Shown: in pieces, positions 9,796-26,597 of the stretch
How the letters are laid out: every line of letters starts with the position of its first letter
How positions within the stretch are numbered: position 1 is the first letter of the stretch
Virus record (IMG/VR): IMGVR_UViG_2734482549_000013
Direction: 5' to 3' (one strand)
DNA from: a virus
Taxonomy: Duplodnaviria > Heunggongvirae > Uroviricota > Caudoviricetes
Length of the DNA: 45,259 nt
Notes under the pieces: generated by a model
What the model saw: only the letters and a program-made list of their open reading frames with translations
Databases searched by the model: none
Told to the model about the DNA's origin: nothing
Program-made: the position numbers and the translations under genes

Positions 9796-10542
9796 ATGAA
9801 AAATATTGCGACAGGCGACGTTCTTGAACGTATCCGCAGACTGGCCCCGTCACATGTAACCGCGCCATTCAAGACGGTAGCGGAGTGGCGCGAGTGGCAA
9901 CTTTCCGAAGGCCAGAAACGTTGTGAGGAGATCAACCGTCAGAATCGTCAGTTGCGGGTGGAAAAAATTCTGAATCGCTCTGGCATCCAGCCATTGCACC
10001 GCAAATGCTCGTTTTCGAATTACCAGGTGCAGAACGAAGCGCAGCGATACGCGTTGAGTCAGGCGAAATCCATCGCTGATGAACTGATGACCGGGTGTAC
10101 AAATTTTGCGTTCAGCGGAAAACCTGGTACCGGGAAGAACCACTTAGCGGCAGCTATCGGGAATCGCCTGCTGAAAGACGGTCAGACAGTGATTGTGGTT
10201 ACCGTGGCTGATGTTATGAGTGCCCTGCACGCCAGCTATGACGATGGGCAGTCAGGCGAAAAATTTTTGCGGGAACTATGCGAAGTGGATCTGCTGGTTC
10301 TTGATGAAATTGGCATTCAGCGCGAGACGAAAAACGAGCAGGTGGTGCTGCACCAGATTGTTGATCGCCGGACAGCGTCGATGCGCAGCGTGGGGATGCT
10401 GACAAACCTGAACTATGAGGCCATGAAAACATTGCTCGGCGAGCGGATTATGGATCGCATGACCATGAACGGCGGGCGATGGGTGAATTTTAACTGGGAG
10501 AGCTGGCGTCCGAATGTCGTCCAGCCAGGAATTGAGAAGTAA
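9796..10542 (+). CDS. ydaV: DnaC/IstB-like AAA+ helicase loader, 248 aa
   Basis: Walker [11 protein letters not shown] and Walker [10 protein letters not shown] read directly from the ORF. Confidence 0.85.
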
Positions 10543-10564
10543 TTTTTACCGGGAGGAAATTTTT

Positions 10565-11326
10565 ATGGAGACTGTTTTTGACGCACTGAAAGCAATGGGA
10601 AAAGCCACATCCATAGAACTTGCTGCGCGACTTGATATCAGTCGTGAAGAAGTGCTGAACGAACTATGGGAACTGAAAAAAGCTGGTTTCGTTGATAAAA
10701 GCGCGTACACCTGGCGTGTGGCTGATAACAACGTTCAGCAGGAACAGCCAATGCAGGCAGAACTGCCGGAAGAAACCACCACGGCAACTGTAGTGAAAAT
10801 CTCAGAGTGCGATTTAACCGCGACGATTGAACAACGCGGACCACAAACGGCGGATGAACTGGCTACGCTGTTCGGTACAACATCCCGCAAAGTTGCTTCA
10901 ACGCTGGCAATGGCAATCAGCAAAGGACGCCTGATTCGCGTAAACCAGAACAGTAAATTTCGTTACTGCATGCCGGGCGATAATTTACCAGCAGAGCCGA
11001 AAGCTGCATCGGTAGCGGAAACTGATGGTAAAGCCTTTCCTCAGCCAGCCGGTGTTGCGTTACCAGTACAGGAAGCGGCAACACAGGAAGATATTAAAAC
11101 AGAAACTGTGGCGGACATTGTGCAGTCGCTGCCATCGTTTACTGAAACGCAAGCGGATGACCTAGTTTTACCATCGCTGCATATGGCAAACCGCGAACTG
11201 CGTCGGGCGAAAAATCATGTCCAGAAGTGGGAGCGAGTCTGCGCCGCGCTGCGGGAGCTGAACAAGCACCGGGATATTGTCCGACAGATTGTCGATTCCT
11301 CCAGTCGTATTGTGTCGGAAAAGTGA
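10565..11326 (+). CDS. ydaW: Full-length YdaW-like protein, 253 aa from [10 protein letters not shown]
   Basis: GGGAGGAAA Shine-Dalgarno upstream of ATG at 10565; N-terminal region recalled as YdaW-like (recalled as truncated in the K-12 Rac remnant). Confidence 0.6.
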
Positions 11327-11341
11327 TTGCCGGAGGCGCTT

Positions 11342-11758
11342 ATGGCAAAAGTTTTTACACAGGAAGAGCGTGAAAAAATTAAGGAGCAGGTTGTTGAGTT
11401 GGTACGCCAGAGTGGGCGCGAGACGTTAAGGCAACTGGAGGCCAAGACAGGTGCGACAAGATATCTGATGAGCATTCTTGCCAGAGAGTTGGTTGCCAGT
11501 GGCGATGTATACAACTCTGGCTATGGGTTATTCCCGTCTGAACAGGCTCGTAAGGATTGGAAAAACGCCCGCAAAAAACTATCCAGGGCAAAGGTGAAAA
11601 AAACGGTTGTGGTTGATCCTGACCTTATCTGGTCATTACCAGACGGAGAAATACGCCGCTATGACAGGCGTCAGAACATAATCTGTCGCGAGTGCCGGAA
11701 GAGTGAAGTTATGAAACGTGTACTGGCATTTTATCAAGGAAATCTTCGGTATTTATAG
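11342..11758 (+). CDS. Hypothetical basic phage protein, 138 aa from MAKVFTQEER
   Basis: ORF with GGAGG Shine-Dalgarno at 11333-11337; no family recognised by eye. Confidence 0.5.
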   Translation: MAKVFTQEEREKIKEQVVELVRQSGRETLRQLEAKTGATRYLMSILARELVASGDVYNSGYGLFPSEQARKDWKNARKKLSRAKVKKTVVVDPDLIWSLPDGEIRRYDRRQNIICRECRKSEVMKRVLAFYQGNLRYL

Positions 11759-11896
11759 ACGTTACTAGATCAAAGAGCATTAGTTCATATGTAAATTGAC
11801 ATTTTTCTGGCACAGGGGAGAGCTAGCGTGGTTGTCCGCTTTGTGCCAATAGCGGACATTGCTGGCTCATGGTATGTTAGTTTAAGGAGGCAGGTT

Positions 11897-12919
11897 ATGC
11901 CCTGTATTTCGCTGTGGTATAATAGTTGCGCAATTGATACAAGGGAGCGTTACATCGTGAAAATTGTTTTCGAGGTTAATGGAAAGAAAGTTCCACTAAA
12001 ATCTTTAAAATACATAAGCAAAAAAGATCAACTCGAAGTAATGAAAAACTGGTTCTTTGAAAACTTTGAAGATCCGGCAAATGCTTGTCCGTATGAAAGT
12101 AGAGAAGGTGGCTATGCTTACATATATGGCGGGCCGTATGATGCGAGCGAAGAACTACAATCCATCTTCGGTCAATATGTTAAATCTGAGTATATTGAGG
12201 AATTAGTAGATGAATTACAAACACAATGTTTTGACTGGTCTGGAAACTCAAATAATATAGATGATTGGTACGATGATGATATCTACGACGCTGTAACGTC
12301 TTCCGGTAATCCGTATTTAAAATTCATTGATAATATCGATAAAATAAAAAAACTTGCAAAAGATAAAACTGAACAACAGCAAAAAAACCACTTGCTTAGT
12401 TTGCTCTACACGAATGTTATTACAGCTTTGGAAACGCTTTATGTTGAGCTATTCATTAATTCTATAGAGAAAGATGATGTCTACATAGCCAATTGTATAG
12501 AAAAAGGTAAGACTGAATTTAAAGTAAGCAAAGATATTGCTGCGTTGCCTTTCAAGGGTGAACCCATCGAGAAAATTAGGGGAGAGCTAATCAGGTCAAT
12601 CAAGGAACACTTGATCAGTGCAAGCTGGCATAGCACTAAAAAGGTAATCGACCGCTATGAAGCTACATTCGATATAAAAGTACAAAAAGACTGTCCGATA
12701 GAAGCTATTGAATTGGCAACCCTCAATCGAAATCACTTAGTGCATCGTGGTGGAAAGGATAAAGAAGGGAACCTCGTAGTGATTACAGACCAGGATCTTG
12801 AAACGCTGATTGAAAATGCATCGAACCTGGCAATTATGCTCTACAACAGTTTAAATGTAGCAACGAATAAAACCACCATTTTGCAACCAGATGACAAACC
12901 GTTCATTCATGAATTTTAA
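11897..12919 (+). CDS. Cargo gene A, 340 aa, AT-rich; C-terminal HEPN-like RNxxxH motif (LNRNHLVHRGG); candidate defense/abortive-infection effector
   Basis: AAGGAGG Shine-Dalgarno at 11884-11890, ATG at 11897; codon usage visibly AT-rich compared with flanking phage genes; motif at 12728-12745. Confidence 0.7.
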   Translation: MPCISLWYNSCAIDTRERYIVKIVFEVNGKKVPLKSLKYISKKDQLEVMKNWFFENFEDPANACPYESREGGYAYIYGGPYDASEELQSIFGQYVKSEYIEELVDELQTQCFDWSGNSNNIDDWYDDDIYDAVTSSGNPYLKFIDNIDKIKKLAKDKTEQQQKNHLLSLLYTNVITALETLYVELFINSIEKDDVYIANCIEKGKTEFKVSKDIAALPFKGEPIEKIRGELIRSIKEHLISASWHSTKKVIDRYEATFDIKVQKDCPIEAIELATLNRNHLVHRGGKDKEGNLVVITDQDLETLIENASNLAIMLYNSLNVATNKTTILQPDDKPFIHEF

Positions 12920-12934
12920 TAGCGCAGGTCATAC

Positions 12935-13936
12935 ATGGATATTCGCACACGAAAGACAAAATTTTTAGAGTCGTTAGATTCAACTGAAGTGATACGCAAA
13001 GCAGTAAGTCTCGCTATAGATTGCATTATTGATAATCATAATAGTAATGAAGATACCCCCTTAGTTATTACCAGCTATGATGATCTCTGTAGAATCCAGG
13101 TGCTAAATTATGTACAGGAGTTTTGCGAAGCTGCATTCCCTGATATGGATGAATATTACTTTAGTCCTAACATACTTCGCATCAACGGCAAGACTAGTGA
13201 AGAAGCTTGTATTAACTTAATTAAACTCTTAAGAAGTACAAAAGGCATGCTATTCTGGTCCGATGCCCCATCGTGGTTCGCTAGCCTCCCCGACGGATTA
13301 TTCCATGTTGTTAACATTGATCAAAAAATCGTTACTCGCGGCCTTAATAAGAAAAACTCTAAGCCGACAATAATCAATAAAGATTACAGTGTAGATACAC
13401 TACTATCAGAGCTATTTTTGAATGGCGCACACATGGAGCAACCCAACGTACACAACGTTTCTGAGGGAAACATGAAGTTCTATGATGAATGCCATGCTGG
13501 ATTAATCAGACCAATACCCGCTCCAATAGGCGCGTCATACGATGAAGAGATCACAATTAATTCTCCAGATTGGCAAAAGCTCGCGTGTGTAGCTTTACGC
13601 CGCTATCAGTCGAAGGAATGTCATGACGGAATGCAATGGGATACAACCGATCATGGTTGGACTGATGTAATCGCGTATCCATTCGTCGAAGAAATACAAT
13701 CAATGGATAATAGTGGTTATCGACAATGTTTAGTTGGGCTGGTCACAATAAACAATTCAAATGCAAATTCTCCGTACCTATCTACCGTTTGGATACATCC
13801 ATTTTATCGCAGGAGAGGGTTATTAAGTAAGTTATGGCCAAAATTACAAGAGTTATATGGAAGTAACTTCGAAATTGAGCGACCTAATGAAAATATGAAA
13901 GCATTTCTGAAAAGTGCGAAACACGCAGATTACTAA
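12935..13936 (+). CDS. Cargo gene B, 333 aa, AT-rich; C-terminal GNAT-like acetyltransferase motif (VWIHPFYRRRGLLSKL)
   Basis: Starts 15 nt after gene A stop (operon-like); motif A-like V-x-P-x-Y-R-x-x-G at about 13786-13826. Confidence 0.7.
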   Translation: MDIRTRKTKFLESLDSTEVIRKAVSLAIDCIIDNHNSNEDTPLVITSYDDLCRIQVLNYVQEFCEAAFPDMDEYYFSPNILRINGKTSEEACINLIKLLRSTKGMLFWSDAPSWFASLPDGLFHVVNIDQKIVTRGLNKKNSKPTIINKDYSVDTLLSELFLNGAHMEQPNVHNVSEGNMKFYDECHAGLIRPIPAPIGASYDEEITINSPDWQKLACVALRRYQSKECHDGMQWDTTDHGWTDVIAYPFVEEIQSMDNSGYRQCLVGLVTINNSNANSPYLSTVWIHPFYRRRGLLSKLWPKLQELYGSNFEIERPNENMKAFLKSAKHADY

Positions 13937-18181: not shown

Positions 18182-18610
18182 ATGGGTTTTCGTAGCGCAT
18201 CAATTCTTACGTTGATTATTAGTGGGATTATTATCGGGTGCACTGATGCTGTATCGACAAATTATCATGACCGTACATCATATTACTCCGATAAAGCAAT
18301 AGAGACACAGTATGTGAGTTCATCTGAACGTACTTCTGATGTTAGTGAGGATATCCGTCTGTATGCCCATCAAATCAAGAGCGCCATCGAAAAACAGTTC
18401 GGGGATGCGAGTAAGTATTCAGGAAAAGAGTGTACACTGAGAATGCATATGGCCCCGAATGGCCTTCTACTGGAGGTTAAAAGAGAAAGTGGAGACCTCG
18501 ATTTATGTCGTGAAGCGATGAATGCGATAAAGAATGCTGATATACCTGCCCCCCCTTCGCCGGAAGTATATAAAGTATTTCAAAATGGGGTGCTGGATTT
18601 TAAACCCTGA
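18182..18610 (+). CDS. Lipoprotein with TolA C-terminal domain III-like domain, 142 aa
   Basis: Lipobox IIGC; C-terminal YAHQIKSAIEKQFGDASKYSGKECTLRMHMAPNGLLLEVKRESGDLDLCREAMNAIKNADIPAPPSPEVYKVFQNGVLDFKP aligns by eye with the recalled E. coli TolA C-terminus (... YAGQIKSAIESKF ... CTLRIKLAPDG ... VYEVFKNAPLDFKP). Confidence 0.7.
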   Translation: MGFRSASILTLIISGIIIGCTDAVSTNYHDRTSYYSDKAIETQYVSSSERTSDVSEDIRLYAHQIKSAIEKQFGDASKYSGKECTLRMHMAPNGLLLEVKRESGDLDLCREAMNAIKNADIPAPPSPEVYKVFQNGVLDFKP

Positions 18611-18760
18611 TATTTATTGTTTTGTAATAAACGGTTTCGGCTTAGGTTTGTTCTGACACAGCTACGGCACTGAGCTAAATTTAGCGGATAGTCAGCTCTG
18701 AGCCAGTGGCGGACGTAACAACTACTATTGCTGAGATTTTAATGGATTGAGGAGCAAGAA

Positions 18761-19156
18761 GTGGGATTAAAGAAAATCGTTATGTTGACTTTTTGGGTCG
18801 GTTTTGTTGCGGGATGCACACCTTTACACCCTTCAGATTGCCACAAAACTACTGCTACAGGTAGTTGCAGTTCAGGACGCTGGGATGATCAGGATGAATG
18901 GGGGGCGCAAGCGCGGGGAATCAGAGCTGCAATTAATGCCAAACTTGATGAGCCGCATAACTGGAAAGGGAAAAAATGCAGGTTGCATATGGAATTCTCT
19001 CAGGATGGCACGGCGTTAAAAATATCTACCAGTAACGGTGATAAAGCCTATTGCGAAGCGATAAAGTCCGCAGCTCATAAAGCCAAATTTCCGGCCTTCA
19101 ACAATCCGGAAGTCTACAGAGATTTTCAGAAATCTGGCTTTGACATGCGAGGTTAG
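18761..19156 (+). CDS. Second, more divergent TolA-III-like lipoprotein, 131 aa, GTG start
   Basis: Lipobox VAGC; shared pattern K.C.L.M ... G..L ... C ... A..KA.FPA...PEVY..FQ with the upstream gene; GAGGAG Shine-Dalgarno. Confidence 0.65.
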   Translation: MGLKKIVMLTFWVGFVAGCTPLHPSDCHKTTATGSCSSGRWDDQDEWGAQARGIRAAINAKLDEPHNWKGKKCRLHMEFSQDGTALKISTSNGDKAYCEAIKSAAHKAKFPAFNNPEVYRDFQKSGFDMRG

Positions 19157-19407: not shown

Positions 19408-19623
19408 ATGAAATCCATGGACAAAATTTCAACAGGCATTGCCTACGGCACCTCCGCAGGCAGTGCTGGCTACTGGTTTTTACAGTTGCTCGATAGAGTA
19501 ACTCCGTCACAGTGGGCTGCAATCGGTGTGCTGGGTAGTCTGGTATTTGGCCTGCTGACGTACCTGACAAACCTTTATTTCAAGATTAAAGAAGATAAGC
19601 GCAAGGCTGCGAGAGGTGAATAA
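19408..19623 (+). CDS. Class II holin / pinholin, phage-21 S-like, 71 aa with dual-start MKSM motif
   Basis: Sequence [26 protein letters not shown] ... [36 protein letters not shown] recalled as S21-like; two transmembrane segments; GGAGGTGAGG Shine-Dalgarno. Confidence 0.8.
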
Positions 19624-20123
19624 TGCCTCCATCATTACGAAAAGTCGTTGCTGCTGCTATTGGTGGCGGAGCAATTGCTATAGCATCAGTGTTAATCACT
19701 GGCCCAAGTGGTAACGATGGTCTGGAAGGTGTCAGCTACATACCATACAAAGATATTGTTGGTGTATGGACTGTATGTCACGGGCATACAGGAAAAGACA
19801 TCATGCTCGGTAAAACGTATACCAAAGCAGAATGCAAAACACTCTTGAATAAAGACCTTGCCACTGTCGCCAGACAAATTAACCCGTACATCAAAGTCGA
19901 TATACCGGAAACAACGCGCGGCGCTCTTTACTCATTCGTTTACAACGTGGGTGCTGGCAATTTCAGAACATCGACGCTTCTTCGCAAAATAAACCAGGGC
20001 GATATCAAAGGCGCATGTGATCAGCTACGTCGCTGGACATATGCTGGCGGTAAGCAATGGAAAGGTCTCATGACTCGTCGTNGTGAGATTGAGCGTGAAA
20101 TCTGTTTGTGGGGTCAGCAATGA
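19623..20123 (+). CDS. SAR endolysin (lysozyme with N-terminal signal-anchor-release domain), 166 aa; contains one ambiguous base (n at 20082)
   Basis: Gly/Ala-rich weakly hydrophobic N-terminus ([20 protein letters not shown]) followed by lysozyme-like domain; start overlaps holin stop (TAATG). Confidence 0.8.
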
Positions 20124-20584: not shown

Positions 20585-20721
20585 AATCTTAACTACAATA
20601 TGATTCATTTTGATGATTGTTTCATAAGGAACAGTGAAGTAAGATCTAAGAGGAGTTAAATTTTATACAGTATAATCATAATATTGCAGCAAGGTGGTTA
20701 TAATTGAAAGAATATTTAGAT

Positions 20722-22179
20722 ATGAATACATCTCATGTAAGAGTTGTTACTCATATGTGTGGGTTCCTGGTTTGGCTCTATAGTCTTTCAATGTTGCCAC
20801 CAATGGTTGTAGCATTGTTTTATAAAGAAAAAAGCCTGTTCGTTTTCTTTATAACTTTCGTTATATTTTTTTGCATTGGTGGCGGAGCGTGGTATACAAC
20901 TAAGAAATCTGGCATTCAATTACGTACCCGTGATGGGTTTATTATAATTGTAATGTTTTGGATTTTGTTTTCTGTTATTAGTGCATTCCCTTTATGGATT
21001 GACTCAGAACTTAATTTAACGTTCATTGATGCTCTGTTTGAAGGGGTTTCTGGAATAACAACAACAGGAGCAACTGTAATTGATGATGTTAGTTCATTAC
21101 CTCGGGCATATTTGTACTATCGGTCACAGTTAAATTTTATAGGTGGTTTAGGAGTTATTGTTCTGGCGGTTGCAGTATTGCCATTATTGGGTATTGGTGG
21201 TGCAAAGCTTTATCAGTCAGAAATGCCGGGGCCATTTAAGGATGACAAACTCACTCCCCGCCTGGCCGATACGTCACGGACACTGTGGATAACTTATTCT
21301 TTATTAGGTATTGCTTGTATTGTCTGTTATAGACTTGCAGGAATGCCTTTGTTTGATGCTATTTGTCACGGGATTTCCACAGTTTCGCTTGGTGGTTTCT
21401 CAACTCATAGCGAGAGTATCGGATATTTTAATAACTATTTGGTTGAGCTGGTGGCTGGTTCTTTTTCCCTGCTATCGGCTTTCAACTTCACTCTTTGGTA
21501 TATTGTTATTAGCAGAAAAACGATAAAACCTTTAATCAGAGATATTGAACTTCGTTTCTTTCTGTTAATAGCCTTAGGGGTGATCATTGTTACCTCTTTC
21601 CAGGTCTGGCATATAGGTATGTATGACTTGCATGGAAGTTTTATTCATTCGTTTTTTCTTGCCAGCTCCATGCTCACTGATAATGGTTTAGCTACGCAGG
21701 ATTATGCAAACTGGCCCACGCACACGATAGTGTTTTTGCTGTTGTCAAGTTTCTTTGGGGGATGTATAGGTTCAACCTGTGGTGGAATTAAGTCACTTCG
21801 ATTTCTTATACTTTTCAAACAAAGCAAACACGAGATAAATCAGCTTTCTCATCCCAGAGCGTTGTTGAGTGTAAATGTAGGAGGGAAGATAGTTACAGAT
21901 CGTGTAATGAGGTCTGTATGGAGTTTCTTTTTTCTTTATACTCTCTTCACGGTGTTTTTTATACTGGTGTTAAATGGTATGGGATATGATTTTCTTACAT
22001 CATTTGCAACAGTGGCTGCATGTATTAATAATATGGGATTAGGTTTTGGGGCTACTGCATCGTCATTCGGAGTGCTTAATGACATTGCAAAATATTTAAT
22101 GTGCATAGCTATGATTCTTGGTCGCCTTGAAATTTATCCTGTTATTATATTGTTTTCAGGTTTTTTTTGGCGCTCCTAA
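20722..22179 (+). CDS. trkG: TrkG potassium uptake protein, 485 aa from MNTSHVRVVT; AT-rich cargo gene
   Basis: Multi-pass membrane protein; N-terminus recalled as TrkG; visibly AT-rich relative to phage structural genes. Confidence 0.9.
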   Translation: MNTSHVRVVTHMCGFLVWLYSLSMLPPMVVALFYKEKSLFVFFITFVIFFCIGGGAWYTTKKSGIQLRTRDGFIIIVMFWILFSVISAFPLWIDSELNLTFIDALFEGVSGITTTGATVIDDVSSLPRAYLYYRSQLNFIGGLGVIVLAVAVLPLLGIGGAKLYQSEMPGPFKDDKLTPRLADTSRTLWITYSLLGIACIVCYRLAGMPLFDAICHGISTVSLGGFSTHSESIGYFNNYLVELVAGSFSLLSAFNFTLWYIVISRKTIKPLIRDIELRFFLLIALGVIIVTSFQVWHIGMYDLHGSFIHSFFLASSMLTDNGLATQDYANWPTHTIVFLLLSSFFGGCIGSTCGGIKSLRFLILFKQSKHEINQLSHPRALLSVNVGGKIVTDRVMRSVWSFFFLYTLFTVFFILVLNGMGYDFLTSFATVAACINNMGLGFGATASSFGVLNDIAKYLMCIAMILGRLEIYPVIILFSGFFWRS

Positions 22180-22316
22180 TATATGGCTGATTTATAATTG
22201 TGAGTTTAATATTATGTTGACTCACTCATTGATCCAATACCTAACTTTACCAGCAACACCTCCGCCCCCAGTAGCACTGGCTGCTGGGGTGCGTTTTATT
22301 CATAAAGCAAGGCTGT

Positions 22317-23105
22317 ATGAGCGAGAAATTAAAGATAGTCTATCGCCCATTACAAGAATTGTCACCGTATGCGCACAACGCCAGGACGCACAGTACTGAG
22401 CAGGTGGCACAACTGGTAGAAAGTATTAAGCAATTCGGCTGGACTAATCCGGTGCTGATTGACGAAAAGGGCGAAATTATTGCGGGTCACGGTCGTGTTA
22501 TGGCGGCTGAAATGCTCAAAATGGATTCTGTTCCGGTCATTGTTCTGTCTGGCCTGACGGATGAGCAGAAAAAGGCGTACCGCCTGGCAGATAATCGCCT
22601 GCCGATGAATGCTGGCTGGGATGAAGATCTGTTGCGGATGGAGCTGTCGGACCTAATCAATGCTGATTTTGATGTCTCCCTGACAGGCTTCATCCCGGCA
22701 GAAATTGATGAACTGTTGACGGATGTTTTGCCCGGTACAGGAAATGAGGAGGAGCCGTATACGACGAAAATTGATACGCCTGTTTATGAGCCGTCAGGCG
22801 GTAAACCGGATATCAGTGAACTGTACGACGATACGAAAACTCAGGAGCTGATCAGCCGGATACGTTCGGCGTCCCTTGATCCTGATATTGAGAAATTCCT
22901 CCTGTGTGCAGCAGAACGTCACACGGTGTTTAATTTCAGCAGAATTGCGGACTATTACGCTCATGCCCCCGCTGAAATTCAGTGCCTTTTCGAGGAGTCG
23001 GCGCTGGTGATCATTGATTATCAGCAGGCTATTGAAAATGGATTTGTCCGAATGACGCAGCGCATGGTGGAGATCATGCATGGCGGGGAGGAGGAATATG
23101 CGTGA
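22317..23105 (+). CDS. ParB-like nuclease domain protein, 262 aa
   Basis: ParB/Srx-like motif IIAGHGRVMAA; located at the start of the packaging module. Confidence 0.65.
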   Translation: MSEKLKIVYRPLQELSPYAHNARTHSTEQVAQLVESIKQFGWTNPVLIDEKGEIIAGHGRVMAAEMLKMDSVPVIVLSGLTDEQKKAYRLADNRLPMNAGWDEDLLRMELSDLINADFDVSLTGFIPAEIDELLTDVLPGTGNEEEPYTTKIDTPVYEPSGGKPDISELYDDTKTQELISRIRSASLDPDIEKFLLCAAERHTVFNFSRIADYYAHAPAEIQCLFEESALVIIDYQQAIENGFVRMTQRMVEIMHGGEEEYA

Positions 23106-24030
23106 TGATTTTTGCGCCTTTATTCTGACTCACGGGCGACCGGACAAAGTTCTGACTTACCGGACGTTGCGTCGTGCTGGCTATACCGGGAAAATTTTTA
23201 TCGTTGTTGATGATGAAGATAAGACACGGCATCAGTACATGGCTGAATTTGGTGAACAGGTGCTGGTATTTTCCAAAGCCGATATTGCTAGTCGTTTTGA
23301 CGAAGCCGATAATTTTAGTGACCGCCGCTCAATTTTTTACGCCCGTAATGCCTGTTTCGACCAGGCAAAACTGGTCGGGTGTAAATACTTCATTCAGCTC
23401 GATGATGATTATCACGAGTTCCAGTTTCGGGTGGATCGCAACTATGACCAGGCCTATTTCCCGATAAGGAAACTGGATGAGATCCTTTCTGAAATGCTTG
23501 CGTACTACGAATCAATACCTGCTCTTTCCATCGCTATGTCGCAGGGCGGGGATTTTCTTGGTGACAATGGCGGCCATGCTTCGTGGGTGAAACGCAAGGC
23601 AATGAACAGCTTTATCTGTTCGGTTGATCGACCGTTCTCATTCATGGGGCGCATTAACGAGGATGTGAATACGTACACGAATCTCGGTCGCTGTGGTGAA
23701 TTGTTTATGACGATCGGTGCTGTCCAGTTAGGGCAGAAACAGACGCAGAAAAACAGCGGCGGAATGACCGAGCTGTATCTGGATTCCGGAACCTACGTTA
23801 AAAGTTTTTACTCCGTCATGTATGCGCCGTCGTGCGTAAAAATCTCACTTATGGGTGCCAGTCATAAACGCATTCACCATCAGGTCACCTGGAACAACGC
23901 TGCAGTAAAAATCCTTCACGAAAAATACAGGAAGAAGACACCCTGCATATCAATGGGGGTGACAAATGATTCCGTATTCGAAAGTCGAGTCTCTGGCAGC
24001 GTGCCGGATGACTGCACAACAAATCGCTGA
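23098..24030 (+). CDS. Hypothetical protein, 310 aa, possible GT-A-like nucleotide-sugar transferase fold (DDD motif in FIQLDDDYHEF)
   Basis: GGAGGAGGAA Shine-Dalgarno upstream of ATG at 23098; N-terminal beta-alpha pattern AFILTHGRPDKV ... IFIVVDDED; fold assignment is inference only. Confidence 0.5.
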   Translation: MRDDFCAFILTHGRPDKVLTYRTLRRAGYTGKIFIVVDDEDKTRHQYMAEFGEQVLVFSKADIASRFDEADNFSDRRSIFYARNACFDQAKLVGCKYFIQLDDDYHEFQFRVDRNYDQAYFPIRKLDEILSEMLAYYESIPALSIAMSQGGDFLGDNGGHASWVKRKAMNSFICSVDRPFSFMGRINEDVNTYTNLGRCGELFMTIGAVQLGQKQTQKNSGGMTELYLDSGTYVKSFYSVMYAPSCVKISLMGASHKRIHHQVTWNNAAVKILHEKYRKKTPCISMGVTNDSVFESRVSGSVPDDCTTNR

Positions 24031-24217
24031 CGTTCTGGATGTTGATCTGAACCGACTGAAAGAAAATCGGGAAGCAATGACAGATTTTTATGCGGCCATC
24101 CGTAAGGGCAGAGCGAAAGGTGAAGCCGAGTTACGAGCGGCATTGTTTAAGCTTGCCAGAAAAGGGGATGCCTTTGCTCTGCGCGAACTACTCAGGGTGG
24201 ATAAAAATCAGGACTAA
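24008..24217 (+). CDS. Possible small helical protein (start uncertain, overlaps upstream gene)
   Basis: Track ORF 23966..24217; ends 4 nt before the terminase small subunit candidate. Confidence 0.3.
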   Translation: MTAQQIADVLDVDLNRLKENREAMTDFYAAIRKGRAKGEAELRAALFKLARKGDAFALRELLRVDKNQD

Positions 24218-24220
24218 CTG

Positions 24221-25315
24221 ATGAGCAGACCGGACTGGGGGGCGTTGCAGCAGGAGTATATTGCTGAATACACCCGCTCCGGTATATCTCCGGTGGCATG
24301 GTGTGAAGCAAGGGGACTGAATTACGCAACAGCCCGTCGTTACATCAAAAAAACTCCGAAAAATGCGCAGACAGAAATGTGCAAAACTGCGCAAAAAAGT
24401 GCGCAGAAAAAATCTGCGCAGACTGCACAAAAGCGGAACGAAAAATCTCAGGAAAAAAAGCCAGTATTCGATGCGGGCCTGAATGAGGGCGACGCGGAGG
24501 AATTTTCGTTCTGTCCCGATGAATTCGGCATTTCTGACCAGCAGGCTAAGTTTGCGATGCTTGTTGCTCAGGGTAAAAAGCCGACAGAGGCGTACCGACT
24601 AGCCGGTTATGAGGGGCAAGGTGCGACAGCTAACAGCAACGCCAGTCGTATGCTTAGAAATGCCAGGGTTTTTCGCGCTATCAGCTACTTCCGCAATCAG
24701 TACCAGAAACGCTATACCGCAGACCTGGATTTACTAGTGAGTCAGTTGATGGCTATTGTCCTGGCCGACCCCAATCAGCTTGCACAATTTCGCCGTGTTA
24801 ACTGCCGTTATTGCTGGGGCGAGAATCATCTCTACCAGTGGCGCGATATAGCAGAATTCGACAAGGCAGCGGCGCAGGCTTCCAGAGATGGCAAACCCGA
24901 ACCGGAATATGGAGGCCTCGGCTTTGTTGATAACGCCATACCCAATCCGGACTGCCCGAAGTGCTGCGGTGAGGGAACGGGACAGCTTTATATGGCTGAT
25001 ACCACTCTGCTTGATGGGGATGCGCGGCAATTATATGCAGGGGCAAAATTCGGAAAATTCGGCGTTGAGATCCTGCTGGAGGATAAGGCTGCCGCCCGGC
25101 GTGAATTGTTGCGTTTGTTTTCTGCTGGCGGGGCTTTATGTGCAGATAAGCGGCTACGGGAACTGGAAATTGAACGGCGCAGAATGGAAAACCAGAAGCT
25201 GCGCAAAGAGATCGAAACGGTGGAAGATAATGAACATCCCCAGCCTGTGGCGATCAATATTAATGTGGTTGATGCCAGAGTAAGGAGTGATGAAGATGAT
25301 CTCTCCGACGCTTAA
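24221..25315 (+). CDS. Candidate terminase small subunit, 364 aa
   Basis: Position immediately upstream of and overlapping the terminase large subunit; N-terminal HTH-like region; acidic C-terminus. Confidence 0.55.
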   Translation: MSRPDWGALQQEYIAEYTRSGISPVAWCEARGLNYATARRYIKKTPKNAQTEMCKTAQKSAQKKSAQTAQKRNEKSQEKKPVFDAGLNEGDAEEFSFCPDEFGISDQQAKFAMLVAQGKKPTEAYRLAGYEGQGATANSNASRMLRNARVFRAISYFRNQYQKRYTADLDLLVSQLMAIVLADPNQLAQFRRVNCRYCWGENHLYQWRDIAEFDKAAAQASRDGKPEPEYGGLGFVDNAIPNPDCPKCCGEGTGQLYMADTTLLDGDARQLYAGAKFGKFGVEILLEDKAAARRELLRLFSAGGALCADKRLRELEIERRRMENQKLRKEIETVEDNEHPQPVAININVVDARVRSDEDDLSDA

Positions 25316-26597
25316 TGTGCCTCAGGCGCGATTTCTTTCAATGCCCCATAAATTTAAAGCCTATATTGCTGGTTTTGGCTCGGGCAAAACATGGGTTGGG
25401 TGTGGCGGCATATGCAAGGGGATTTGGGAGCATCCAGGTATAAATCAGGGATATTTTGCGCCAACGTATCCCCAAATTCGCGATATTTTTTACCCTACAG
25501 TGGAAGAAGTTGCTGCTGACTGGGGATTGAACGTAAAAATTAATGAGGGAAATAAAGAGGTTCACTTTTATTACGGACGCCAGTATCGGGGAACCACTAT
25601 CTGCAGATCGATGGAGAAGCCACAAACGATCGTCGGTTTCAAAATTGGTAATGCGTTGGTGGATGAACTGGACATTTTGCCGAAGGAAAAAGCCAGAACG
25701 GCGTGGCGCAAGATAATTGCACGTATGCGTTATAAGATTGATGGACTTCGCAACGGTATTGACGTTACAACCACGCCGGAAGGATTCAAATTTGTCTACG
25801 AGCAGTTTGTTAAAGCCGTGCGTGAAAAAACAGAGCTGGCCTCACTGTATGGTCTGGTGCAGGCATCTACTTTCGATAATGAAAAGAACCTGCCAGCAGA
25901 TTACATTCCTTCGCTTCTTGAATCATACCCTCCAGAGCTGATTAAAGCCTATCTTCGAGGACAGTTTACTAACCTGACAAGTGGTACTGTTTACCATCAG
26001 TTTGACCGGAAACTGAATAATTGCGAAGAAGTGGAGCAGCCAGGGGAGCCGATTTATATTGGGATGGATTTTAACGTTGGAAAGATGGCGGGAATCGTCC
26101 ATGTGCTGCGTTTGGGGCTTCCATGTGCGGTAACTGAAATCATCAATGCCTACGATACGCCGGATATGATCCGCATCATTAAAGAACGCTTCTGGCTGTA
26201 TGATGGGAATGATTACCGGAAAGTGAGGGAAATTTATATTTATCCAGATGCTTCCGGGGATTCCAGAAAATCAAGTAACGCAAGTACGACGGATATAGCC
26301 CAGCTTAAGCAGGCTGGTTTTAACGTTGTGGTGAACAGCTCGAACCCGCCAGTAAAAGATCGCGTTAACTCAATGAATGCAATGTTCTGCAATGCCAATG
26401 GTGAGCGTCGCTATAAAGTTAATGTGAAGCGTTGCCCGTTATATGCCGAATCTCTGGAGCAACAGGTCTGGGATGAGAAGGGGGAGCCTGATAAAAAATC
26501 TGGCAATGATCACCCGAATGATGCCGGAGGTTATTTCATCGTTAAGCAATTCCCTATTGTCAAACCGACCGGAAGAGTCACATCACTTCGGATTTAA
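25287..26597 (+). CDS. Terminase large subunit, 436 aa
   Basis: Walker A AGFGSGKTW and Walker B-like LVDELD; followed by portal gene. Confidence 0.8.
   Translation: MMKMISPTLNVPQARFLSMPHKFKAYIAGFGSGKTWVGCGGICKGIWEHPGINQGYFAPTYPQIRDIFYPTVEEVAADWGLNVKINEGNKEVHFYYGRQYRGTTICRSMEKPQTIVGFKIGNALVDELDILPKEKARTAWRKIIARMRYKIDGLRNGIDVTTTPEGFKFVYEQFVKAVREKTELASLYGLVQASTFDNEKNLPADYIPSLLESYPPELIKAYLRGQFTNLTSGTVYHQFDRKLNNCEEVEQPGEPIYIGMDFNVGKMAGIVHVLRLGLPCAVTEIINAYDTPDMIRIIKERFWLYDGNDYRKVREIYIYPDASGDSRKSSNASTTDIAQLKQAGFNVVVNSSNPPVKDRVNSMNAMFCNANGERRYKVNVKRCPLYAESLEQQVWDEKGEPDKKSGNDHPNDAGGYFIVKQFPIVKPTGRVTSLRI

Follow-up and report, generated by a model that had tools for sequence, protein, structure and literature searches.

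Sugar-modified DNA is a main counter-defence of phages, and the enzymes that make it serve as tools for mapping 5-hydroxymethylcytosine (5hmC). To our knowledge, the known routes to DNA glycosylation all require that a pyrimidine be hydroxymethylated first. We analysed a 45,259-nucleotide (nt) stretch of viral DNA (IMG/VR record IMGVR_UViG_2734482549_000013; the window), a Rac-like lambdoid prophage of E. coli in which a gene of the TAGT (TET-associated glycosyltransferase) family separates a ParB-like gene from the terminase genes. The biochemically characterised TAGT-type enzymes act on DNA; they are ggt of phages T2 and T6 (PMC13216743) and the GT-A glycosyltransferases associated with 5mYOX (TET) enzymes (PMC8256090; 10.1101/2023.12.21.572611). 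The characterised phage and kinetoplastid relatives all glycosylate a DNA hydroxyl installed by another enzyme: T2/T6 ggt extends alpha-glucosyl-5hmC (PMC13216743), the TET-linked enzymes of phages take 5hmC, which a C5-methyltransferase and TET produce (PMC8256090), and the base-J glucosyltransferase (JGT) uses 5-hydroxymethyluracil (5hmU) made by JBP. Many family members do not come with such partners. Of 753 phage genomes, 288 had solitary TAGT genes (PMC13216743), and some 65% of glycosyltransferase contigs have no 5mYOX or ThyS neighbour (Pyle et al., 10.1101/2023.12.21.572611); in both cases they were left unexplained. The locus described here belongs to that unexplained majority of contigs.

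It is well supported by sequence comparison that the window encodes a predicted active GT-A glycosyltransferase that is obligately paired with a novel partner domain and is independent of any hydroxymethyl-pyrimidine pathway. We document its family, fold, motifs, selection, translational coupling, obligate co-occurrence with the partner, and independence from 5hmC and 5hmU genes. What the pair acts on is a more tentative matter. The reading that we prefer, and hold to be a little short of an even chance, is that of a late-expressed module that is delivered by ParB, glycosylates phage DNA or a DNA-bound target around packaging, and has an anti-restriction or marking role.

The TAGT gene is real and conserved. 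A preliminary description, made from the sequence alone, had picked out a 310-amino acid (aa) open reading frame (ORF) between a ParB-like gene and the terminase as a possible GT-A-like transferase. Translation of the intact ORF gave the identical protein, with the strings quoted at the time at residues 7-18 (AFILTHGRPDKV), 32-41 (KIFIVVDDED), and 98-108 (FIQLDDDYHEF). RefSeq has a protein at the same coordinates of a 100%-identical E. coli chromosome (WP_001614535.1, 'GREB1-related protein'). The 1.9 kb surrounding the gene is 100% identical to several complete E. coli chromosomes, and a query spanning the ParB and TAGT genes had a match in 1580 of 5426 complete E. coli genomes, with at least 80% of the query matched in 867 of them. 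An upstream in-frame ATG (position 23080) lacks a Shine-Dalgarno-like site such as that seen before the start at 23098. Clustered at 90% identity, the homologues fall into at least 8000 groups; at 50% identity, 1323 clusters matched with E<=1e-3. Homologues from widely differing hosts keep 40-65% identity. The ratio of nonsynonymous to synonymous substitution rates (dN/dS) was 0.06-0.07 against E. coli alleles with 23-35% synonymous-site difference (up to 84% for the most divergent allele). The gene is under strong purifying selection, and a chance ORF is excluded. Translation, RefSeq, Pfam, homologues, and dN/dS thus all bear out the ORF that had been picked out, and its placement is also as described, with an 83-aa ORF intervening before the small terminase gene.

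The protein has the family, fold, and active-site residues of a GT-A glycosyltransferase. It scored 118.9 bits on the Pfam family PF20691 (TAGT; cut-off 27.5 bits, E=3.7e-34), well beyond the gathering threshold, with residues 8-222 aligned to profile positions 4-205 of 205, and it matched phrog_842 in PHROGs (E=7.5e-104). Searches with it found no model in NCBIfam, no PADLOC defence system, and no sequence match in the PDB. AlphaFold with a 58-sequence alignment gave a model with a predicted local distance difference test score (pLDDT) of 75 and a predicted template modelling score of 0.75, with pLDDT above 90 in the N-terminal 150 residues and low-confidence loops at residues 69-74, 150-170, and 220-232; from a single sequence the pLDDT was only 36 and the model was not usable. 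A fold search with the alignment-based model returned GT-A (nucleotide-diphospho-sugar transferase) folds, the fold of PF20691, and the structural neighbours include SunS/ThuS, glycogenin, ColGalT1, POMGNT1, and GalNAc-Ts. The GT-A-like transferase of the preliminary description, for which structure prediction had been proposed as a check, is therefore found again in both the profile match and the model.

We examined conservation in two alignments (A1 and A2, with 58 and 47 homologues, respectively) that reach down to 40% identity. Invariant or nearly invariant positions are R14, D41, R83, D102-D104 and Y105, Q149, G151 and D152, R166 and K167, N187 and D189, T216 and Q217, G221-G222, and H260 and H261. 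An R...DDD...ED motif has been defined for phage GT-A DNA glycosyltransferases and for JGT (10.1101/2023.12.21.572611). Its elements are present here as the near-invariant R14, D102-D104, and E188-D189, with a valine rather than Y/F after ED. In the model, D102-D104 comes right after a predicted strand at residues 97-102. The acidic patch D38-D41 probably has a role in nucleotide binding, by analogy to general GT-A architecture, and the ED element is a candidate for the catalytic base of an inverting GT2-like enzyme. The TAGT family has been reported as a sister group of GT2 (PMC13216743); this placement and the ED element suggest that the mechanism is inverting. The DxD motif and the Rossmann-like start noticed earlier are genuine features of an intact active site, as judged by the invariant residues and the model.

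Longer members of the family are fused to a second TAGT-like domain, a class I S-adenosylmethionine methyltransferase, a carbohydrate-type sulfotransferase (Sulfotransfer_2), or a P-loop kinase-like segment (P0128, P0132, P0161, P0170, P0146, P0148, P0150, P0184, P0195, and the gene at 10001-11719 of locus L084). The P-loop kinase-like segment is N-terminal and was called from a sequence motif alone. These are the kinds of enzymes that build and decorate glycans, which suggests that some phages make decorated or extended glycans. A fusion of ParB to TAGT would have been Rosetta-stone evidence, and none was found; the N-terminal extensions of the long homologues are the second glycosyltransferase, methyltransferase, and P-loop kinase-like segments.

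The TAGT gene is translationally coupled to the gene upstream. That gene encodes a 262-aa protein of the ParB/Srx family (Pfam ParB_N, E=8.7e-07; phrog_620, E=1.7e-90) and had a dN/dS of 0.10-0.14 against the E. coli alleles. The TAGT start codon overlaps the ParB stop codon as ATGCGTGA, a classic coupling arrangement, and is preceded by the Shine-Dalgarno-like sequence GGGGAGGAGGAA. In a search of the PDB with a profile of 31 homologues, the N-terminal ~108 residues of the ParB-like protein matched the CTP-binding domain of Noc, ParB, and Spo0J (E values of 1e-11 to 1e-8). This domain has a GHGR arginine motif at residues 57-60, in which G57 is invariant and R60 is at least 90% conserved, and it is closest to the domain that is fused to phage DNA methyltransferases (phrog_498, E=6e-51; PADLOC MTase_II, E=1.5e-38). 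The protein is not a canonical partition ParB: it reached 38.1 bits on TIGR00180 (cut-off 58.45) over the N-domain only, the PDB profile matches end at about position 108-138 with no helix-turn-helix (HTH) DNA-binding match, and there is no ParA in the RefSeq annotation of the prophage. In the identical genome, RefSeq calls this gene ('ynaK') an incomplete pseudogene over its first 258 nt, although the 262-aa ORF is intact and under purifying selection. Our guess is that the call was templated on a short form such as that of K-12.

The part of the ParB-like protein that is always found with TAGT is an acidic C-terminal domain. Among 31 aligned ParB-like partners, the best-conserved stretch was not the ParB domain but the C-terminal ~110 residues, with the motifs Y-[ST]-x-K-[IV]-x-x-P-x-Y-E-P, FL..AA.RH.VF, IADYYAH, and SALVIIDF.KAIE.GF. 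A profile search of the PDB found no sequence relative of this domain, and the domain isolated from five phages gave only noise in Pfam up to E=10. A database search with the domain only found ~420 proteins, many of them stand-alone and 130-142 aa long; those that overlap a TAGT start have 133-142 aa. In three contexts, the gene for a stand-alone partner overlaps the TAGT start by 11-14 nt or is ~50 nt upstream, and these stand-alone pairs are located among replication genes rather than packaging genes. For example, the 139-aa ORF upstream of TAGT in 191-kb Vibrio phages is the partner domain (E=1e-45).

The partner domain and TAGT co-occurred in nearly every locus that we compared. The loci were drawn from metagenomes, IMG/VR, genomes (a genome-contig scan with a single protein gave 7 loci), and GenBank phages; about 50 of 80 loci per scan are near-identical E. 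coli prophages, so the independent observations are fewer than the counts. When 49 diverse loci were clustered, TAGT was present in 48 and the ParB-like protein in 45, and the next most frequent cluster, the small terminase, in 17; the misses were traced to the ORF caller or to truncated contigs. A hidden Markov model (HMM) of the partner domain had a match in 101 of 101 loci that carry this TAGT subfamily and found nothing in the T6 ggt region. Starting from the partner in IMG/VR, 74 of 77 loci had a TAGT start between -10 and +8 nt from the partner stop. The three exceptions are two deleted prophage remnants, in which a coat-protein gene follows the partner, and one locus with an inserted gene. 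The remnants (E. coli prophages L123 and L124) have an intact ParB-like gene followed by a P22-type coat gene, have lost TAGT, terminase, and portal, and are defective. The inserted gene (L176, 2942-3895) encodes a fusion of a histidine phosphatase (His_Phos_1) and a cytidylyltransferase-like domain between the ParB-partner and TAGT genes, and this nucleotidyltransferase may supply an activated, unusual donor.

The pair is found in phages of Escherichia, Salmonella, Klebsiella, Pantoea, Yersinia, Lactobacillus, Nocardia, Vibrio, and Porphyromonas, and in the haloarchaeal virus HHTV-2. Across enterobacteria, lactobacilli, actinomycetes, Bacteroidota, and haloarchaea, the TAGT enzymes are 27-47% identical with an invariant active site; in the Porphyromonas phage, where TAGT is only 27% identical, the partner domain was still detected at E=3e-12. 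Judging from these sequences, we conclude that the constant unit is the partner domain plus TAGT, and that the partner often carries a ParB-CTPase domain added at its N-terminus. The median isoelectric point (pI) of the partner domain is 4.6, with a net charge of about -11, compared to 8.6 for the TAGT transferases. Because it is strongly acidic next to a mildly basic enzyme, the partner is unlikely to be a DNA-binding element; it more closely resembles an acceptor or a subunit with a regulatory or adaptor function.

The acceptors known for the TAGT family cannot be made in this prophage. In the RefSeq annotation of the identical region, and with Pfam on the unnamed ORFs, there was no TET/JBP dioxygenase (PF12851), hydroxymethylase, alpha- or beta-glucosyltransferase, or C5-methylase, and the RefSeq annotation names no second glycosyltransferase or DNA methylase. 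The same four kinds of enzyme were absent from the complete 38-kb genome of Lactobacillus phage phi jlb1, which carries the same pair, has no DNA polymerase of its own, and has unassigned early genes that all encode fewer than 120 aa. None of the four, TET_JBP included, was among the families matched by at least two of 150 neighbour representatives from the 49 loci, a comparison that covered the 25 commonest families and in which single matches are possible. Since there is no TET/JBP, hydroxymethylase, or alpha- or beta-glucosyltransferase, none of 5hmC, 5hmU, and glucosyl-5hmC can be made. Two stand-alone pairs have a DNA methylase within one or two genes, a short C5 DNA_methylase (L097, 4868-5614) and an N6_N4_Mtase (L100, 7298-8020), with no dioxygenase annotated in either locus.

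The locus shares features with several described systems and differs from each of them. T2/T6 ggt is in the same Pfam family, of which T6 ggt is a marginal member (35.8 bits on PF20691), and is likewise a GT2-like GT-A enzyme. However, T6 ggt adds a second glucose to alpha-glucosyl-5hmC and is next to the deoxycytidine monophosphate hydroxymethylase gene, with the alpha-glucosyltransferase gene nearby; both are absent from the prophage, in which no homologue of gp42 or the alpha-glucosyltransferase is annotated. T6 has no partner domain, and ggt did not align to the profile of this subfamily (hhalign probability 0.1). T2/T6 ggt is the source of the PHROG/pharokka label 'beta-glucosyl-HMC-alpha-glucosyltransferase' that the homologues of this protein carry, and the label is an over-annotation because T6 ggt is marginal in PF20691, does not align to the subfamily profile, lacks the partner domain, and has a gene context that is absent here. 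The GT-A enzymes associated with 5mYOX (PMC8256090; 10.1101/2023.12.21.572611) have the same fold and R...DDD...ED motif and frequently have ParB and terminase as neighbours, and we count their post-replicative action as a further likeness. They differ in that they need a C5-methyltransferase plus TET, or a T-dioxygenase, to provide the hydroxyl, and the prophage has neither. JGT and GREB1 share the TAGT/GT-A domain according to the literature (PMC7968844; 10.1101/2023.12.21.572611), and the RefSeq/UniRef name 'GREB1-related' is the only other link. JGT requires 5hmU made by JBP, and GREB1 is a multidomain protein of ~1950 aa that adds O-linked N-acetylglucosamine (O-GlcNAc) to estrogen receptor alpha (ER-alpha) (PMC7968844), whereas the phage protein is a stand-alone domain of 310 aa.

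The ParB side of the locus also has relatives. ParB-like proteins without a DNA-binding domain activate phage thymine dioxygenases on double-stranded DNA (O'Toole et al. 2026, PMC13229309). As in that system, a DNA-modifying enzyme would be paired with a cognate ParB-like protein in which a nucleotide-binding domain at the N-terminus is followed by a C-terminal domain, with terminase as a frequent neighbour; by sequence, the N-domain, the C-domain, the lack of an HTH, and the strict cognate pairing are all present here. The enzyme in that system is a dioxygenase and not a glycosyltransferase, and the partner that never changes here is the C-domain, which can occur without the ParB N-domain. 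ParB-terminase loci have been predicted to modify phage DNA during packaging (Aravind group, PMC4738411). The ParB-Tls loci and the fusions of ParB_N to methyltransferases (PMC4738411; PMC12704722) have a similar N-domain and are directly upstream of terminase. In the fusions the effector is part of the same protein, and here it is a separate, translationally coupled glycosyltransferase. Glycosyltransferases do not figure in a 2025 survey of fusions to ParB-CTPase domains (Kaljevic 2025, PMC12704722).

The pair is located at the head of the packaging genes and is probably expressed with them. In RefSeq the order is recT/recE, immunity and replication genes, Q-like genes, lysis genes, trkG, 'ynaK', 'GREB1-related protein', small and large terminase, portal, head, and tail; the ParB_N gene, TAGT, and the small and large terminase genes follow one another on the same strand, as in ParB-terminase loci. 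The same gene order is found in phi jlb1, NTR1, a P. gingivalis phage, and phage c5. In c5, a cos phage, the pair is the first two genes after the cos site, and in the archaeal virus HHTV-2 the pair is conserved with the large terminase gene ~3 kb downstream. ParB-fused pairs are directly upstream of terminases of at least four unrelated families (Terminase_6, GpA, TerL_ATPase, and Terminase_3), indicating that the pair moves as a cassette into the same functional position. The G+C content is 0.47-0.50 in the ParB/TAGT and packaging genes versus 0.36-0.40 in trkG, and there is no promoter-like site on the plus strand after the hairpin at 22266-22289. Because the pair is on the same strand as the lysis and packaging genes, has no promoter-like site after the terminator, and has a packaging-like G+C content, we infer that it is expressed from the Q-antiterminated late transcript. 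The fusion of the partner to a ParB-CTPase domain and the position at the head of the packaging operon also point to late expression.

Based on these features, we favor the following mechanism. TAGT would be an active, GT2-like, probably inverting GT-A enzyme that uses a host nucleotide-sugar and a divalent metal. It would be one half of a self-contained module of two proteins, the other half being the acidic ~110-aa C-terminal partner domain, which is made from the same message by translational coupling and is most likely bound to TAGT. The module would be expressed late, from the Q-antiterminated transcript, and the ParB-CTPase domain, a presumed nucleotide-gated clamp, would bring it to replicated phage DNA. 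There it would add sugar to the DNA, or to a target bound to it, as packaging takes place or beforehand, and the DNA injected into the next host might thereby be marked or protected. The link to DNA and packaging comes from the terminases of at least four families downstream and from the stand-alone pairs among replication genes.

Several considerations weigh against this mechanism. No acceptor known for the TAGT family can exist in this prophage, and unmodified DNA has no hydroxyl except at its termini. The acidity of the partner domain (median pI 4.6) is unlike that of a DNA-binding domain, and the subfamily is too distant from T6 ggt for a profile alignment. The eukaryotic family member GREB1 glycosylates a protein (PMC7968844). 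The earlier suggestion of DNA or protein glycosylation stands in part: the enzyme belongs to a sugar-transferring family that is used on phage DNA, but the prophage has no maker of the usual attachment point. The main rival, a serious one although we hold it to be rather doubtful, is that TAGT instead O-glycosylates a protein, most simply the Y-[S/T]-x-K...P-x-Y-E-P peptide of its own partner, and that a glycosylated ParB-like, packaging, or virion protein is the functional product. This would resemble the self-glucosylation of glycogenin or the O-GlcNAcylation of ER-alpha by GREB1, which carries a TAGT domain (PMC7968844), and the structural neighbours of the model include GT-A enzymes that glycosylate proteins and peptides. 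In the partner, residue 149 is either Ser or Thr in all cases, Y148 and Y157 never vary, and the region has the look of an extended peptide; the acidic partner is again unlike a DNA binder, and the enzyme is mildly basic. Such a cassette would be self-sufficient in any host, which fits its spread through Gram-negative and Gram-positive bacteria and archaea without a precursor pathway. However, GT-A similarity of this degree is uninformative about the acceptor, the characterised phage and kinetoplastid members act on DNA, the ParB-CTPase fusion and the packaging and replication neighbours indicate nucleic acid, and there is no evident role for such a glycoprotein.

Two other explanations are less probable still. 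TAGT might act in trans on DNA that is already modified (5hmC, 5hmU, or sugar-bearing bases), either as a defence that over-glycosylates the DNA of superinfecting hydroxymethyl-pyrimidine phages or as a relic of a TET-linked pathway. This is the sole chemistry demonstrated for the family (PMC13216743, PMC8256090), and an anti-phage role of prophage glycosyltransferases has been proposed (10.1101/2023.12.21.572611). We nevertheless consider it improbable: a late-operon gene that follows a terminator and lacks its own promoter-like site should be silent in the lysogen, the same pair is present in virulent phages (c5 and the 191-kb Vibrio phages), TAGT had no PADLOC match, and the strong purifying selection and the obligate partner do not fit a relic. 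Even less probable, in our view, is that the enzyme glycosylates the cell envelope or a small molecule, by lysogenic conversion of O-antigen or teichoic acid or by modification of a nucleotide-derived metabolite. No single envelope acceptor can be common to enterobacteria, lactobacilli, actinomycetes, Bacteroidota, and haloarchaea, yet their enzymes keep the same active site. In addition, the obligate partner is a ParB-type protein, no membrane-associated gene was noted beside the pair (no transmembrane prediction was made), and G+C content and operon position place the gene with the packaging genes and not with trkG. We likewise rejected the idea that the pair is a lysogenic-conversion moron like neighbouring trkG, from which it differs in composition and operon position.

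The TAGT family, the GT-A fold, and the RefSeq name were already known, so the core idea of the preliminary description is correct without being new. In the accessible literature we did not find the strict tie of a solitary TAGT subfamily to a ~110-aa domain, nor that domain, rather than the ParB fold, as the constant partner; Iyer et al. 2013, who defined TAGT, may note a ParB linkage. Searches for 'ynaK' and for HHTV-2 with glycosyltransferase found nothing relevant. At least one large, highly conserved subfamily of solitary TAGT enzymes is therefore not alone but always with a specific partner domain, usually on a ParB-CTPase protein beside packaging genes. Automatic labels of the homologues ('beta-glucosyl-HMC-alpha-glucosyltransferase', 'partition protein', 'ynaK pseudogene') are misleading.

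The pair might even be a complete, precursor-independent glycosylation system that puts a sugar on canonical DNA or a glycan on the Y-[S/T] peptide of the partner, although we regard this as unlikely. In the DNA version, the acceptor would be an unmodified base or a DNA terminus made by packaging, and the ParB-CTPase domain would be a DNA-loading device. If true, this would be the first DNA glycosylation without need for a hydroxymethyl-pyrimidine, a new modification chemistry that bears on restriction, BREX, evasion of type IV systems, and sequencing of prophage DNA. In the protein version, the product would be a ParB-type clamp that carries a glycan and takes part in packaging; the ParB fold would then have a new use. 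In either version, the 'solitary' glycosyltransferases of phages in bacteria and archaea would include a widespread class marked by a ~110-aa domain that had not been recognised before. The question can be tested directly in E. coli because the intact two-gene cassette is present in hundreds of sequenced strains.

Table. Positions in the window of the glycosyltransferase pair, its motifs, and adjoining features (A1 and A2 are the two alignments of TAGT homologues).
Feature	Position	Strand	Evidence
TAGT-family GT-A glycosyltransferase gene (310 aa, predicted catalytic subunit)	23098-24030	+	PF20691, phrog_842, RefSeq, model, dN/dS
Codon of invariant Arg14 ('R' of R...DDD...ED)	23137-23139	+	Invariant in A1 and A2
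Codons of D38-D39-E40-D41, probable nucleotide-binding acidic patch after strand 2	23209-23220	+	D38 and D41 invariant in A1; D41 in A2
Codons of D102-D103-D104-Y105, DxD-type metal/nucleoside diphosphate-sugar motif	23401-23412	+	Invariant in A1; at least 90% in A2
Codons of N187-E188-D189-V190 ('NEDVN'), ED element, candidate catalytic base	23656-23667	+	N187 and D189 invariant in A1 and A2
ParB/Srx-family partner gene (262 aa, full-length form of 'ynaK')	22317-23105	+	ParB_N, phrog_620, profile matches, dN/dS
ParB-CTPase-fold N-terminal domain (~residues 1-108)	22317-22640	+	PDB profile matches
Conserved acidic partner domain (~residues 147-255, ~110 aa)	22755-23081	+	Most conserved part of ParB-like protein
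Coupling junction	23085-23105	+	GGGGAGGAGGAA (23085-23096), ATG 23098, TGA 23103-23105, read from sequence
Terminator-like hairpin closing the trkG moron, 28 nt before ParB-like start	22266-22289	+	Sequence
83-aa ORF between TAGT and small terminase	23966-24217	+	phrog_309 (terminase small subunit, partial), E=8.3e-23
Terminase small subunit (24221-25315) and large subunit (25287-26597)	24221-26597	+	Pfam Terminase_2, Terminase_6N, Terminase_6C

The 83-aa ORF overlaps the final 65 nt of the TAGT gene. A cluster of ~85-aa proteins is present at this place in 11 diverse enterobacterial loci, and RefSeq has a shorter form. The ORF probably belongs to the packaging module and not to the glycosyltransferase pair. 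It matches the middle of phrog_309 and may serve the small terminase as a separate part for DNA recognition. In the alignment, the E. coli version alone is extended, by the last ~22 residues of TAGT, and the homologues finish near residue 288. TAGT of the relatives stops right before the 83-aa ORF, which makes the 22-aa E. coli tail look like the result of read-through past a lost stop codon.

Other features of the window are not part of the pair. The K+ transporter gene trkG (20704-22289) is a low-G+C moron between the lysis genes and the packaging module, with its own terminator-like hairpin. We rejected K-12 ydaY as a remnant of the TAGT gene; ydaY is located elsewhere, among tail genes. 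There is a single ambiguous base (N) at position 20082, within the lysozyme gene (19623-20123), where it gives an X in the translation. In the early region, the adjacent genes of unknown function at 11828-12919 and 12935-13936 could be a defence or toxin-type moron: one has a weak, sub-threshold HEPN/RES N-terminal match and the other a weak GNAT match, PADLOC found nothing for either, and the genome of E. coli EC2 (NZ_CP058571), identical in other respects, has a frameshift in the gene at 12935-13936. Small ORFs at 18182-18610 and 18761-19156 directly precede the lysis cassette. The first has a TolA C-terminal domain (Pfam TolA, 2.4e-23), and in the identical genome RefSeq annotates TolA C-terminal-domain genes in the 18182-19156 stretch, one of them as partial tolA. 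These TolA-domain ORFs might interfere with Tol-dependent colicins or filamentous phages.

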